From: a virus
Taxonomy: Duplodnaviria > Heunggongvirae > Uroviricota > Caudoviricetes
DNA: 10,778 bases
Direction: 5' to 3' (one strand)
Virus record (IMG/VR): IMGVR_UViG_2579779002_000007
Coordinates: 1-10,778 of that record
The notes beneath the pieces are model-generated. The model was not told the DNA's origin, ran no database searches, and saw only the letters and a program-made list of their open reading frames with translations. Numbering within the stretch: position 1 is the stretch's first letter; every line of letters starts with the position of its first letter. The position numbers were made by a program, and so were the translations under genes. This document shows, in pieces, positions 1-10,778 of this stretch.

Positions 1-1
1 C

Positions 2-319
2 GATGAACTGCGGCGTAAGAAAATCAGCGCGCTTATCCCTCCCCGAAAAGGTGCGGGCTACTGGCCCGGTGAATATGCAGACCGTAACCGTGCAGTGGCT
101 AATCAGCGAATGACCGGGAGTAATGCGCGGTGGAAATGGACAACAGATTACAACCGTCGCTCGATAGCGGAAACGGCGATGTACCGGGTAAAACAGCTGT
201 TCGGGGGGTCACTGACGCTGCGTGACTACGATGGTCAGGTTGCGGAGGCTATGGCCCTGGTACGAGCGCTGAACAAAATGACGAAAGCAGGTATGCCTGA
301 AAGCGTGCGTATTGCCTGA
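2..319 (+). CDS. IS903-family DDE transposase, C-terminal fragment (5' end truncated by window edge)
   Basis: Frame 2 is open from the window start to TGA at 317-319. The listed 74-aa ORF (95-319) is only the part after an internal Met. Recalled similarity to the IS903 transposase C-terminus. Confidence 0.85.
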   Translation, partial: DELRRKKISALIPPRKGAGYWPGEYADRNRAVANQRMTGSNARWKWTTDYNRRSIAETAMYRVKQLFGGSLTLRDYDGQVAEAMALVRALNKMTKAGMPESVRIA

Positions 320-357
320 AAACACAACCCGCTACGGGGGAGACTTACCCGAAATCT

Positions 358-375
358 GATTTATTCAACAAAGCC
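358..375. repeat. IS903 terminal inverted repeat (outer end)
   Basis: GATTTATTCAACAAAGCC, the reverse complement of the canonical 18-bp IS903 IR; abuts the truncated hsdS codons. Confidence 0.7.
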
Positions 376-442
376 CCCCCAATGGCAACCACTCAACCTC
401 AACCCCATCCAGCAATTTTTCCAGATAACTCATCTCGCTCAT
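376..442 (-). pseudogene. hsdS: Type I R-M specificity subunit hsdS, 5' remnant (about 22 codons) truncated by the IS903-family insertion
   Basis: Minus-strand ATG at 442-440 overlaps the hsdM stop (ATGA). Translation [23 protein letters not shown] matches the conserved N-terminus of type IC HsdS proteins, then runs directly into the IS terminal repeat at 375. Confidence 0.6.
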
Positions 443-2001
443 TTCTGCACCTCGCAGCCTTCAATTTCAGCCACAATCGCATCAATATCTTTGCGCAACT
501 GGTCGATTTTGCTGACCGTGGTTTTCAGTTCTGCATTCAACTCAGCGATATCGATAATTTCGCGAGTATCTTTCGCTTCCACATAGCTGCTCACTGACAG
601 GTTATAGTCATTAGCGACAACGGTCTCAAACGCGACAGATTTCGCCAGATGAGCAACATCTTCCTTGCTGGCAAATACCTGCATAATCTGTTCGATATGG
701 GCATCGGTCAGGATATTGTTGTTAGTCTCTTTTTTGAATAGCTCGCTGGCGTCAATAAACTGAACGTTGGTATCGGTTTTATGTTTAGACAGCACCAGAA
801 TGTTTACGGCAATGGTGGTGCCAAAGAACAGGTTCGGAGCCAGTGAAATCACGGTTTCGACATAGTTATTATCGACCAGATACTGACGGATTTTCTGCTC
901 CGCGCCGCCACGGTAAAAAATACCCGGGAAGCAGACAATCGCAGCACGACCTTTGGCCGAAAGATAGTTCAGCGCATGTAATACAAACGCAAAGTCAGCT
1001 TTGGATTTGGGGGCCAGAACGCCAGCCGGGGCAAAACGTTCATCGTTAATCAGCGTCGGGTCATCGCTGCCAATCCATTTCACCGAATACGGCGGGTTAG
1101 AAACGATGGCATCAAACGGTTTTTCATCTCTGAAGTGCGGTTCAGTCAGCGTATTGCCCAGCTTGATATCAAACTTGTCGTAGTTGATGTTGTGCAAAAA
1201 CATGTTCATACGCGCCAGGTTATAGGTCGTATGGTTGATTTCCTGACCAAAAAAAACTTCTTCGATGATATGGTCATCAAACTGTTTTTTAGCCTGCAAC
1301 AACAGCGAACCGGAGCCTGCTGCCGGGTCGTAGATTTTGTTAACGTGGGGCTGCCCGTGCATAGCCAGTTGTGCAATCAGCTTGGAGACGTGTTGCGGTG
1401 TAAAGAACTCGCCGCCTGACTTACCGGCATTCGCCGCATAGTTAGAAATCAGGAACTCATAGGCATCGCCAAACAGGTCAATCTGATGTTCATTGAAGTC
1501 ACCAAGTTTTAACCCTTCAACCCCTTTCAGAACCGCAGCCAGGCGGGCATTTTTATCCTTAACGGTGTTACCCAGGCGGTTACTGGTGGTATCGAAATCA
1601 GCAAACAAACCTTTGATGTCAGCTTCTGAAGGGTAACCGTAAGCAGAGCTTTCGATAGCAACGAAGATACTGTTTAAATCTGCATTCAGTCTGTCATTGG
1701 TATTTGCTTTCGCAGCTACGTTGCAGAAAAGCTGACTTGGGTAGATGAAGTAGCCTTTGGTTTTGATGGCATCGTCTTTAATGTCATCAGTAATTACGCT
1801 GTCATCCAGTTTCGCATAACAGATGCTGTCATCACCGGCTTCAATATAGCTGGAAAAATTTTCGCTGATAAAACGGTAGAAAAGTGCGCCCAGAACGTAT
1901 TGCTTAAAATCCCATCCATCGACCGAACCCCTGACATCGTTAGCAATTTGCCAGATTTGACGATGAAGCTCTGCACGTTGTTGAATACTTGTCATTTTCA
2001 T
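439..2001 (-). CDS. hsdM: Type I restriction-modification N6-adenine DNA methyltransferase subunit HsdM (EcoR124I-like, type IC)
   Basis: 520-aa ORF with AdoMet motif I ([10 protein letters not shown]) and catalytic motif IV (NPPY, in SNPPYSVKW). The N-terminus [17 protein letters not shown] and the 520-aa length match my recollection of EcoR124I HsdM. The stop overlaps the hsdS start. Confidence 0.9.
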
Positions 2002-4661: not shown

Positions 4662-5855
4662 GTGACCTGGGACGATCACAAGAAGAATTTTGCTCGCCTG
4701 GCGCGAGATGGTGGTTACACCATCGCACAATATGCCGCCGAGTTTAATCTCAACCCAAACACCGCACGTCGTTATCTCCGTGCATTCAAAGAAGACACCG
4801 GAACAGCGGACAGCCGTAAGCCAAATAAGCCTGTCAGAAAACCACTAAAAAGCATGATCATTGATCACGCTAATGATCAACGTGCAAGTGATCACATTGT
4901 GGCTGAAATGGCTGAAAAACAAAGAGTTAATGCTGTTGTCAGTGCCGCAGTCGAGAACGCTAAGCGCCAAAATAAGCGCATAAATGATCGTTCTGATGAT
5001 CATGACGTGATCACCCGCGCCCACCGGACCTTACGTGATCGCCTGGAACGCGACACCCTGGATGATGATGGTGAACGCTTTGAATTCGAAGCTGGCGATT
5101 ACCTGATAGATAACGTTGAAGCGCGGAAGGCCGCGCGCGCTATGTTGCGTCGATCCGGGGCCGATGTTCTGGAAACCACTCTTCTGGAAAAGTCTCTTTC
5201 TCATCTCCTTATGCTGGAGAACGCCAGGGATACGTGTATTCGCCTGGTGCAGGAAATGCGCGATCAGCAAAAAGACGATGATGAAGGTACTCCGCCTGAA
5301 TACCGTATCGCGAGCATGCTAAACAGCTGTTCCGCGCAGATAAGCAGTCTGATCAACACCATTTACAGCATCCGGAATAACTATCGAAAAGAAAGCCGGG
5401 AGGCGGAAAAGCACGCTTTGTCTATGGGGCAAGCTGGCATTGTTAAGCTGGCATACGAACGAAAGCGTGAAAATAACTGGTCAGTGCTGGAAGCAGCTGA
5501 ATTCATCGAGGCGCATGGCGGGAAAGTGCCGCCCCTGATGCTGGAGCAAATCAAAGCCGATCTGCGTGCTCCTAAGACCAATACCGATGATGAGGAAAGG
5601 CAAACAGCCGTCGGTGGCCCTTCTCTTGAAGATCTGGACAAAGTTGCGCGAGAACGGGCCGCCAACCGCCGCGCCGATGCCGCATTGTGGATTGAGCAGC
5701 GTAGGGAAGAAATCGCCGATATCGTTGATACAGGCGGTTATGGAGATGTTGATACTGAAGGTGTATCAAACGACCCATGGCTGGAACAAGACCTGGACGA
5801 AGACGAGGAGGAAGACGAAGAAGTTACCCGCAAGCTATACGGGGATGATGATTAA
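4662..5855 (+). CDS. pacA: PacA, P1-type terminase pac-recognition (small) subunit, 397 aa
   Basis: GTG start with AAGGAAG RBS; 397 aa, matching P1 PacA length. The pac site hexamer repeats lie inside the 5' part of the ORF as in P1. Stop overlaps the pacB ATG (TAATG). Confidence 0.85.
4855..5014. other. pac: pac packaging site: 4 + 3 hexanucleotide TGATC(A/G) elements, each carrying a Dam GATC site
   Basis: TGATCA at 4855-4860, 4862-4867, 4874-4879 and 4889-4894 (left cluster). TGATCG at 4985-4990, TGATCA at 4998-5003 and 5009-5014 (right cluster). Matches the known P1 pac architecture with cleavage between the clusters. Confidence 0.7.
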
Positions 5856-7339
5856 TGGCCAGAAGTTGCGTAACGGATCCACGTTGGCGCGAGTTGGTGG
5901 CGCTATATCGTTATGACTGGATTGCGGCCGCTGATGTTTTGTTCGGCAAAACACCTACCTGGCAGCAGGATCTGATTATTGAGTCTGTGCAGGAACAGGG
6001 TAGCAAGACATCTGTTTCGTCTGGTCACGGTACCGGGAAATCAGACATGACTTCTATCATGATCATGTTGTTCATAATCATGTATCCCGGTGCCCGTGCC
6101 ATTATCGTTGCGAACAAAATTCAGCAGGTAATGACCGGTATATTCAAGTACATCAAGATAAACTGGGCTACGGCCACCAGCCGTTTTCCGTGGCTTGCTG
6201 ATTATTTTGTTCTGACAGAAACCGCTTTTTATGAAGTTACTGGTAAAGGTGTATGGACTGTAGTACCGAAGGGCTTTCGTCTGGGAAGTGAATAAGCTCT
6301 CGCAGGTGAACACGCAGATCATCTTCTGTATATTATCGATGAAGCCTCCGGTGTCAGTGATAGAGCTTTCGGTATCATCACCGGTGCTCTTACCGGACAG
6401 GATAACCGCATCTTATTGCTGTCACAGCCTACACGCCCAAGCGGCTATTTCTACGATACTCACCATAAACTGGCCAAGCGTCCTGGTAACCCTGATGGCG
6501 TTTATACGGCGATCACGCTTAACAGTGAGGAATCACCGCTGGTAACGCCAGCATTTATCAAAATGAAGCTGGCGGAGTACGGCGGGCGTGATAACCCTAT
6601 GTACATGATTAAGGTACGCGGACTATTCCCTAAATCACAGGATGGCTTCCTTCTTGGACGTGATGAGGTTGAACGTGCGACGCGGCGGAAAGTCAAGATT
6701 GCCAAAGGATGGGGCTGGCTTGCATGTGTGGACGTTGCTGGTGGTACGGGACGGGATAAGTCCGTTATCAATATCATGATGGTGTCCGGCCAGAGAAATA
6801 AACGCCGTGTAATCAACTATCGAATGCTGGAATACACAGACGTTACAGAAACGCAGCTTGCCGCCAAAATTTTCGCAGAATGTAATCCTGAGCGATTCCC
6901 AAATATCACCATAGCGATAGACGGCGATGGCCTGGGTAAAGCAACGGCGGATCTGATGTACGAGTATTATGGTATTACCGTACAGCGTATACGCTGGGGT
7001 AAAAAGATGCATAGCCGTGAAGATAAGAGCCTGTACTTTGATAAACGTGCTTATGCCAACGTTCAAGCCGCAGAGGCCGTAAAATCTGGTCGTATGAGAC
7101 TGGATAAGGGTAATGAAACTATTGAGGAAGCGTCGAAAATCCCTGTAGGGATTAACTCCGCGGGTCAATGGAAAGTGATGAGTAAGGAGGATATGAAGAA
7201 AAAACTCAACCTGCACTCACCAGACCATTGGGATACATATTGTTTCGCTATGCTGGCGGATTATGTTCCTCAGGATGAAGTGCTTAGCGTCGAAGACGAA
7301 GCGCAGGTTGATGAAGCTCTGGCATGGCTTAATGAATGA
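5855..7339 (+). pseudogene. pacB: PacB-like large terminase subunit, 494 codons in total, interrupted by an in-frame TAA at codon 147 (6293-6295)
   Basis: ORF-track pieces 5855-6295 and 6416-7339 are in the same frame. Hand translation of 6296-6415 is open and encodes the Walker B-like segment [15 protein letters not shown]. Walker A (SGHGTGKS) lies upstream of the stop. Total length of 1485 nt equals the expected P1 PacB size. Confidence 0.7.
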
Positions 7340-7359: not shown

Positions 7360-7484
7360 TGTTTTTTAACTACCGATGTTACATTGAACCTGACCTCTTG
7401 CGCCTTGAGGCATTTTCGGTTTATGCTTATCAGGCACCTCATTAAAACGGGTGCCGGGATTGAGACCCCGGATAATGCAAAAGG

Positions 7485-7519
7485 CGACACAGACGCCAAA
7501 AGCGTCTTTTTTTGTGTCA
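7485..7519 (+). terminator. Rho-independent terminator after the pac operon
   Basis: Stem AGACGC (7491-7496) / GCGTCT (7502-7507), loop CAAAA, followed by a T7 run (7507-7513). An outer GACACA/TGTGTC pair extends the hairpin. No U-tract on the opposite strand. Confidence 0.55.
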
Positions 7520-7555
7520 TGCCATCGCACAGCCATACGTAGCGTTTAGCTCAGA

Positions 7556-7648
7556 GATCAATGGTAGTGCTGGCTGGGCTGCCGAAAGGCAGGCCGGTTC
7601 CCTTTTGCGCCGGTAGTCTCAACCCAGTCAGTGCTACCGCCATTGAGA
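7556..7648 (+). ncRNA. c4: c4-like antisense RNA candidate (immI-type translational repressor, tRNA-like fold)
   Basis: 7-bp long-range stem TCAATGG (7558-7564) / CCATTGA (7640-7646) encloses a CTGGG/CCCAG helix, a GNRA hairpin (CTGCC-GAAA-GGCAG, 7579-7592) and a hairpin (CCGG 7594-7597 / CCGG 7610-7613) whose 12-nt loop contains CCTTTTGC (7601-7608), perfectly complementary to GCAAAAGG (7680-7687) at the icd RBS. Boundaries are approximate. Confidence 0.4.
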
Positions 7649-7698: not shown

Positions 7699-7920
7699 GT
7701 GGCTACTATCCCTACCCCTGCTCATTCTGAATTTATCTGGCGCTTTTACTCCTGCCAAAAACGTCACTATCACTTCGTTATTGCACCGACAGAAGATGAG
7801 GCACGTTCTCAGCTTCCGGATGCTCCCTGTATTTTCTCTGCCCGCTTTTCTACCGATTCGCGCAATTCTCTCAGTTACTGGTGCCTCCCTATTAACGCTT
7901 CTGCTCAGGAGGGACTATGA
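7699..7920 (+). CDS. icd: Icd-like small protein (interference with cell division), 73 aa
   Basis: GTG start 8 nt after AAGGAGG (7684-7690). 73 codons matches the recalled size of P1 Icd. Stop overlaps the ant ATG (ATGA), consistent with translational coupling. Frame choice is uncertain. Confidence 0.45.
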   Translation: MATIPTPAHSEFIWRFYSCQKRHYHFVIAPTEDEARSQLPDAPCIFSARFSTDSRNSLSYWCLPINASAQEGL

Positions 7921-9029
7921 GAACGTCATTAGTCACCCGTGAAGAGATGATCGAGGCAATTGAACAGCACACTGCCTGTATCAGTACCAGGGATATACCG
8001 GGCGTTATTGCCAACTACTTCATGATCACCAAACAACTTTACCGGAGAAAGGACAAACACGCGGTTCACCGCATTCTGCTAACCGATATCCGTGAATACC
8101 TGCTCGAACAGGGTCATCTGAATTACGCAACCGTCGCAGCCGAAGCACGCAAGGAGGCACACAGAATGAAAGCAACTAACGTTAAATCAGAAAAAATTTA
8201 TGCACCTTCAGTTCAGGAATCGGAACTGGTGGTTGTTCAGAATCAGCCGGATGAAATTCCCGTTCTGGAATGGCAGGGAGTACGTGTCGTGACAACCGAA
8301 ACTCTTGCTAGAGGGTATGGGGTCGATGAAGCCAATATTCGCAACAATTTGTCTCGCAACCTTGACCGCTTTGAAGAAGGTAAGCATTACTTTCTTCTAA
8401 CTGGTTTAAAATTAAGAGAATTTAAGAACAGAGTAACCGGAAGTTACTCTGTTGGTAAGAACGCCAGAAGCCTTACACTCTGGACAGAGCGCGGCGCTGC
8501 ACGCATGTCTAAGATCGTGGACACAAATGAAGCATGGGCATTCTTTGAAAAACTGGAAGACAGCTACTTCCGGCAAAAAGAACAGCAACCGGTTGCAATC
8601 CCCCAAACATTACCAGAAGCCCTACGCCTGGCTGCCGAACTGGCTGAACAAAAGCAGCTTCTGGAACAGAAAGCCCACCAGCTAAATCAGCAGCTGGTAG
8701 CCGCCGCTCCTAAGGTCGATTTTGCCGACCGGGTATCAGTAGCTAAAGGGATCCTGATTGGGAATTTTGCAAAGGTTGTTGGACTTAAGCAAAACGCGCT
8801 GTTTGCCTGGTTACGGGAGAACGGCATCCTGATAGCGTCCGGTGGACGTAAAAATGTGCCGTTCCAGCAGTACATCAACGCGGGGTATTTCACGGTGAAA
8901 GAAGTGGTGCTGGATGATGAAGATGGCTACCAGATACGGTTGACGCCTCAATTAACGGGTAAAGGCCAGCAGTGGTTGACGCGTAAACTGCTCGATGCTG
9001 GCTTGTTAAAACCGGTGGCGGCTGAATAA
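7917..9029 (+). CDS. ant: Antirepressor Ant (Ant1, 370 aa), N-terminal Ant/ORF6N-like domain plus C-terminal KilA-C/ANT domain; nested in-frame Ant2 start at 8166
   Basis: Central segment VLEWQGVRVVTTETLARGYGVDEANIRNNLSRNLDRFEEGKHYF and C-terminal segment GNFAKVVGLKQNALFAWLRENGILIASGGRKNVPFQQYINAGYFTVKEV are typical of phage antirepressor domains. Internal ATG at 8166 (Met84) is preceded by a perfect AAGGAGG at 8151-8157. Confidence 0.75.
   Translation: MRTSLVTREEMIEAIEQHTACISTRDIPGVIANYFMITKQLYRRKDKHAVHRILLTDIREYLLEQGHLNYATVAAEARKEAHRMKATNVKSEKIYAPSVQESELVVVQNQPDEIPVLEWQGVRVVTTETLARGYGVDEANIRNNLSRNLDRFEEGKHYFLLTGLKLREFKNRVTGSYSVGKNARSLTLWTERGAARMSKIVDTNEAWAFFEKLEDSYFRQKEQQPVAIPQTLPEALRLAAELAEQKQLLEQKAHQLNQQLVAAAPKVDFADRVSVAKGILIGNFAKVVGLKQNALFAWLRENGILIASGGRKNVPFQQYINAGYFTVKEVVLDDEDGYQIRLTPQLTGKGQQWLTRKLLDAGLLKPVAAE

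Positions 9030-10316: not shown

Positions 10317-10778
<462 letters not shown>

Follow-up and report, generated by a model that had tools for sequence, protein, structure and literature searches.

A derived ochre codon in pacB of a P1-like segment from Escherichia coli, probably a product of relic decay

In a 10,778-nucleotide stretch of DNA (hereafter the window; contig JJLV01000030.1, assembly GCA_000627965.1) that belongs to a P1-like element of Escherichia coli, the large terminase gene pacB is interrupted by an in-frame ochre codon at codon 147. Comparison of this position across assemblies and relatives indicates that the TAA is a genuine, inherited nonsense mutation. We consider it probable that pacB is a pseudogene in this lineage, that the derived ochre codon represents neutral decay in a P1-derived relic segment, and that it was not the first lesion to disable the phage.

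Translation of positions 5855-7339 yielded a single frame of 495 codons with stops at codons 147 and 495 only (Table 1). The sense codons on either side of the premature stop add up with it to 494, which is also the length of PacB in P1 and RCS47. An earlier note on this DNA had described two open reading frame pieces in one frame, 494 codons in sum and separated by a TAA at 6293-6295, with a Walker B segment 3' of the stop and a truncated product deprived of function, and our retranslation agrees with it. A pattern search, which reports motif matches only, placed the stop between a Walker A-like and a Walker B-like motif, so that the latter and the entire C-terminal part are cut from the translated product; the window holds no uninterrupted pacB frame able to give ATPase and nuclease in one chain. 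The list of open reading frames splits the gene into 5855-6295 (146 residues) and a downstream piece that begins at the first canonical in-frame start (ATG, GTG or TTG) past the TAA. Since this start lies beyond the Walker B-like motif, re-initiation would be unable to restore the ATPase and was ruled out, and the downstream reading frame is no evidence of a separate gene.

Table 1. Features of the window discussed in the text (positions are those of the window).
Feature	Position	Strand	Description
IS903B-type transposase 3' end and truncated hsdS remnant	1..388		transposase end at 1..319, abutting the hsdS remnant
hsdM	439..2001	-	type I, intact ORF but orphan (hsdS truncated, hsdR absent)
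pacA	4662..5855	+	intact 397-codon ORF, GTG start
pac site inside pacA	4855..5013	+	four TGATCA (4855, 4862, 4874, 4889), then TGATCG (4985) and two TGATCA (4997, 5008)
pacB 5' part	5855..6292	+	146 sense codons, Walker A-like motif inside
Walker A-like motif	6020..6043	+	SGHGTGKS, pacB residues 56-63 (motif match only)
Premature ochre TAA, pacB codon 147	6293..6295	+	derived G to T at 6293; ancestral GAA (Glu)
pacB 3' remnant	6296..7339	+	347 sense codons and TGA, frame open; Walker B-like motif and C-terminal part
Walker B-like motif	6326..6343	+	LYIIDE, pacB residues 158-163 (motif match only)
ORF called by gene callers 3' of the stop	6416..7339	+	307 codons, TTG start = pacB codon 188
isrK-type Hfq-binding RNA	7434..7512		Rfam, 59 bits
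Terminator-like hairpin	7491..7507		
C4 antisense RNA	7557..7644		Rfam, 75 bits
icd	7699..7920		
ant	7917..9029		
IS5-family (ISKpn26-type) element	10317..10778		just past coi

By sequence comparison, the interrupted gene is a homologue of P1 pacB. It is collinear with P1 pacB over the full length (80.9% nucleotide identity, 100% query coverage, the same 1485-nt length) and with the genes of RCS47, SJ46, phiW39 and related phage records (98.4-98.9% nucleotide identity), and several hundred P1-like plasmids match the region as well. The intact allele matched the PHROGs family phrog_2, 'terminase large subunit', with an E-value of 5.9e-40 over residues 33-474. No model matching PacB was found in Pfam or NCBIfam, and a sequence search of the PDB returned nothing significant (E about 0.8-0.9); the assignment as a terminase comes from PHROGs alone. 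In P1, pacB is essential, its CRISPRi knock-down lowering the plating efficiency below 1.2e-7, and pacA and pacB are entered as 'amber mutant reported' in the essentiality table of that phage (PMC10695390). Cleavage at pac has been described as requiring PacA plus PacB (PMC10028697).

The partner gene and the packaging site are preserved, as the earlier note had also held. The uninterrupted pacA frame ends in a TAA that shares one base with the pacB ATG, and its product differs by one residue from that of the closest relatives and by 18 residues from PacA of P1, with a match to phrog_1711, 'terminase' (E 2e-204). The seven pac hexamers within pacA equal those of P1, in both number and offsets, around the cleavage sites annotated in AF234172.

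Apart from pacB, all P1 genes within the window are intact open reading frames, among them lpa and the immunity genes c1, coi and c4-icd-ant. No tRNA gene was found in the window. The closest complete relatives carry a 1-bp deletion in hsdM (window position 1783), where the gene is annotated as frameshifted, and the hsdM SNPs among the loci cluster at 871-1849 in several haplotypes, a pattern that suggests recombination patches. The two RNAs identified with Rfam lie upstream of icd and ant, and the position of the immI module, between pacB and c1, is that of RCS47-type elements and differs from that in P1. In L009, one of the loci with the TAA, 17 bp that separate the isrK-type RNA from the C4 RNA are deleted (7539-7555).

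To place the stop in the history of the gene, we inspected codon 147 in five relatives, and all of them encode glutamate. P1, the reference that the earlier note had proposed for comparison, has GAG; the other four, namely RCS47, an E. albertii plasmid and the two closest complete relatives of the window, have GAA. The stop is not conserved in functional homologues, and the recoding that, according to the note, a TAA in functional pacB genes would imply did not hold; judged from these sequences, a family-wide recoding of the pacB stop is excluded. When the window is aligned over 10.3 kb with its two closest complete relatives (99.7-99.8% identity), the TAA corresponds to a clean G-to-T substitution at 6293. 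The pacB of the TAA lineage differs from that of these relatives at three positions, and at two of them it matches the outgroups L001 and L002; the nonsense change is therefore the sole derived change in the allele. No 100% match to the 63 bases centred on the stop came up among complete E. coli records (307), PLSDB plasmids (336) and phage records (9). An exact scan with the 21 bases around the TAA found nothing in IMG/VR viral contigs and nothing in the GTDB species-representative genomes, the latter being expected because this set holds one genome per species and is unlikely to include the relevant E. coli lineage.

The allele occurs in numerous independent assemblies. An exact-sequence look-up, which also returned the window's own contig, located the 146-residue product in 118 indexed blocks of the assembly collection. 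The product is present on 62 contigs from NCBI, ENA and Logan, where it is labelled, for instance, 'terminase, partial' or 'hypothetical protein' (E. coli). The nine loci with the TAA that we fetched have varied sources (NCBI assemblies, a metagenome assembly in ENA and Logan assemblies of several runs), so that the variant is not limited to one assembly or data set. Their pacB sequences are identical or one SNP apart, with only two singleton SNPs in all, and they contain no additional stops or frameshifts, the 3' frame being still open. The flanks, on the other hand, differ: recombination-like patches of SNPs occur in hsdM and in doc-pdcB, IS1 is inserted at varying sites, an IS5-type insertion follows coi, and one locus has the 17-bp deletion described above. 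On these comparisons, the TAA allele is inherited and has been kept through some diversification, and it is recent enough for the sequence 3' of the stop to be free of additional decay.

Both ends of the window lie in insertion sequences (Table 1). The IS5-family insertion occupies the spot expected for imcB/imcA of P1; it is common to the window and one NCBI locus (L012, GCA_000627475.1) and absent from the other TAA loci. The closest complete relatives are 99.7-99.8% identical to the window and have the same IS903B junction on the left, and in them the region is a P1 remnant of about 16.5 kb with the order hsdS'-hsdM-phd-doc-pdcAB-lpa-pacAB-c4/icd/ant-c1-coi-cra-cre-c8, continuing to ref'-mat'. 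One of these relatives is pE102651_87 (NZ_CP189663.1; L016 and L017), an 87-kb plasmid of which about 30 kb, including IS copies, is P1-like. This part includes the P1 replicon and partition genes and a few genes for head and tail; it comprises repA-parAB-23-22-21-pmgG-bplB, a darB fragment with ulx-lxc, an interrupted mat, a truncated ref and the block from cre to phd. No match was found in the plasmid to the P1 regions with prt (portal), pro, lyz/lyd and S/R/U (tail fibres), nor to those with bplA, sit, tub, kilA/repL and ban. The rest includes cargo that is unusual for a P1-derived plasmid: a complete-looking his-gnd-O-antigen-galF cluster (gmd, an aminotransferase, an ABC transporter and glycosyltransferases), a bcsA/B/C cellulose operon broken by a group II intron and an IS200/IS605 element, and a PerC-family regulator together with an autotransporter. 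The other relative is the chromosome of strain TUM14664 (NZ_CP135649.1; L004 and L018), in which the same 16.5-kb remnant, with an intact pacB, is located at about 4,058,757-4,077,243 between proV and nrdF. It has IS903B at either end and thus the structure of a composite transposon, and this transposon-like unit brings pac, pacAB, the c1 immunity, cre and phd-doc into the chromosome.

Contigs with the TAA itself resemble these remnants to different degrees. Three of them (L006, L007 and L013) are 99.8% identical to and collinear with the remnant, and all three have a broken resolvase. One of the three, L006, extends to the left IS903B junction and has a ref without its first 60 residues, the comparison with P1 Ref having been made for this contig only. 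In L009, a further TAA locus, ref and mat are full-length and mat is free of IS903B, so that the bracketed structure is not present in every carrier of the TAA. This locus also has IS1 upstream of lpa, and it shares with pE102651_87 an EAL-domain gene, foreign to P1, beside mat. The longest TAA contig is at most 28 kb, as expected for a segment bounded by repeats.

Based on these results, we propose the following course of events. A G-to-T transversion at 6293 would have changed Glu147 from GAA to TAA in one sublineage of the RCS47/SJ46-type P1-like plasmids of E. coli. Translation would stop after 146 residues, with Walker A kept and Walker B and the entire C-terminal part lost, and this copy of pacB would provide no pacase or packaging motor, hence neither cleavage of pac in cis nor packaging. 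Because the closest complete relatives are remnants devoid of most virion, lysis and lytic-replication genes, we read the stop as decay of a relic, presumably neutral in a gene that was already unneeded. The loss of these genes is shown for the two relatives, which have GAA at codon 147. The element would persist through P1 plasmid functions, namely repA/parAB (as found in a relative), phd-doc addiction and the immunity conferred by c1, coi and c4-icd-ant. Given the intact pacA and pac, packaging that starts here would require a source of PacB in trans, such as a P1-like phage that is co-resident or superinfecting.

The earlier note had framed the finding differently, as a single mutation that turns a phage into a packaging-defective, plasmid-only or helper-dependent element. 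Its first part stands, in that the TAA is real and truncates PacB; its framing fits poorly with closest complete relatives that are remnants. For the pacB stop to be the sole lesion of an otherwise complete and inducible P1-like phage-plasmid is, in our judgement, rather unlikely. Such an element would account for the intact pac and for the intactness of the other P1-derived genes in the window, and it would agree with the TAA allele being free of secondary decay and, in L009, standing beside full-length ref and mat. However, the closest complete relatives have no match to most of the P1 regions for virion, lysis and lytic-replication functions, the three collinear TAA contigs share the broken resolvase of the remnants, with a truncated ref in L006, and IS copies lie at both ends of the window while the TAA contigs do not exceed 28 kb. 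The lack of additional lesions in pacB 3' of the stop (0-1 SNPs per locus, nine loci) may simply reflect a recent mutation, although it would also be compatible with continued selection.

In another reading, an ochre suppressor tRNA or programmed readthrough would carry translation past the stop to give full-length PacB, possibly at a regulated low level. The 347 downstream codons, open in nine of nine loci, would be consistent with such readthrough, but a young allele explains them equally well, and we regard readthrough as very unlikely. None of the relatives inspected, P1 and RCS47 included, has the stop, its 63-base context is absent from the nine phage records, and the window contains no tRNA gene. 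Moreover, the TAA is followed by G, a context that terminates efficiently in E. coli.

Truncated forms of pacB were also encountered elsewhere. The same 146-residue fragment results by another route in L015 (10439-10468), a Logan contig (SRR11484344) that is 97.3% identical to the window and represents a different P1-like sublineage. There the left end of IS2 (TAGACTGGCCCC...) is joined right after codon 146 and the IS provides a TAG stop; its identity was confirmed against the IS2 copy of plasmid F. That the two truncations share a codon boundary most likely reflects ascertainment, the look-up having been made with the exact product. We considered whether the TAA might be a scar of IS2 excision at this boundary and ruled this out, as the change is a clean substitution with no inserted or duplicated bases. 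A product of 158 residues (P0003), present on 155 contigs, reads from about residue 130 into the other end of IS2 (WICPYISRHLL...), and its cluster holds further truncated forms of 125, 139 and 144 residues; all these forms come from one cluster at 90% identity, which probably pre-selects similar lengths, and they are therefore no evidence of a hotspot. Among 617 PLSDB plasmids with similarity to pacB, a contiguous match covering at least 80% of the gene was found in 558, leaving about 10% without one.

Recurrent truncation of pacB in this region, by IS2 after about residue 130, by IS2 after codon 146 and in the forms of 125-144 residues, could suggest that the 146-residue fragment is selected together with intact PacA and pac, acting as a dominant-negative product that blocks the pacase of superinfecting P1-like phages. 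To our minds this is a far-fetched reading of the sequences. The fragments were drawn from a single, probably length-preselected cluster, and the decay of a relic gene through IS insertions and point mutations would account for these facts as well. Equally improbable is the broader proposal that the truncations at about residues 125-158 (two by IS2, one by the ochre codon, and others) would be convergent and would reflect an exclusion function derived from the terminase. Finally, an error of sequencing or assembly over an intact pacB, which the earlier note had also raised and which a one-base difference from the nearest relatives might suggest, is hardly conceivable given that the nine loci from NCBI, ENA and Logan share the TAA, that the product is on 62 contigs, and that the change is a substitution and no homopolymer indel.

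The preferred reading, decay of pacB in a P1-derived relic, has consequences mostly limited to annotation. The reading frames at 5855-6295 and 6416-7339 should be joined in the annotation into a single pacB pseudogene, and surveys of phage-plasmids should leave the element out of their tally of intact, transducing P1-like members. As a lineage marker, the TAA allele can identify a repeatedly sampled family of P1-derived plasmid segments, and the intact pac could still allow a helper P1-like phage to package DNA from the segment. The decay of P1-like phage-plasmids into plain plasmids is already in the literature and nothing here falls outside the known kinds; in the present case decay has also led to an IS903B-bracketed segment that keeps pac, pacA and the immunity and addiction genes.

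Three known systems are closest to the one described here. With PacB of P1 and of the RCS47/SJ46 type (AF234172, NC_005856), the window shares the length and collinearity of the gene, the Walker A- and B-like motifs, the one-base overlap of pacA and pacB and the layout of the pac hexamers inside pacA, whereas codon 147 is TAA in place of GAA or GAG and translation cannot go past residue 146. The laboratory amber mutants of P1 pacA and pacB are similar in having a nonsense codon in an essential packaging gene while pac and the other subunit are intact; the window allele, however, is a natural ochre that circulates in wild E. coli, and it sits in an element that was apparently degraded already. 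P1-like plasmids that have lost lytic functions are known, pJIE250-3 being an example (Venturini et al. 2019, PMC6906374). The family described here resembles these lytic-deficient plasmids in its P1-like backbone maintained as a plasmid, in its IS-mediated deletions and in its insertions of cargo. It differs from them in that the lesion in pacB is a point nonsense mutation as opposed to a deletion, and in that the cargo of its relatives is an O-antigen/his/gnd cluster and a bcs operon in place of resistance or virulence modules.
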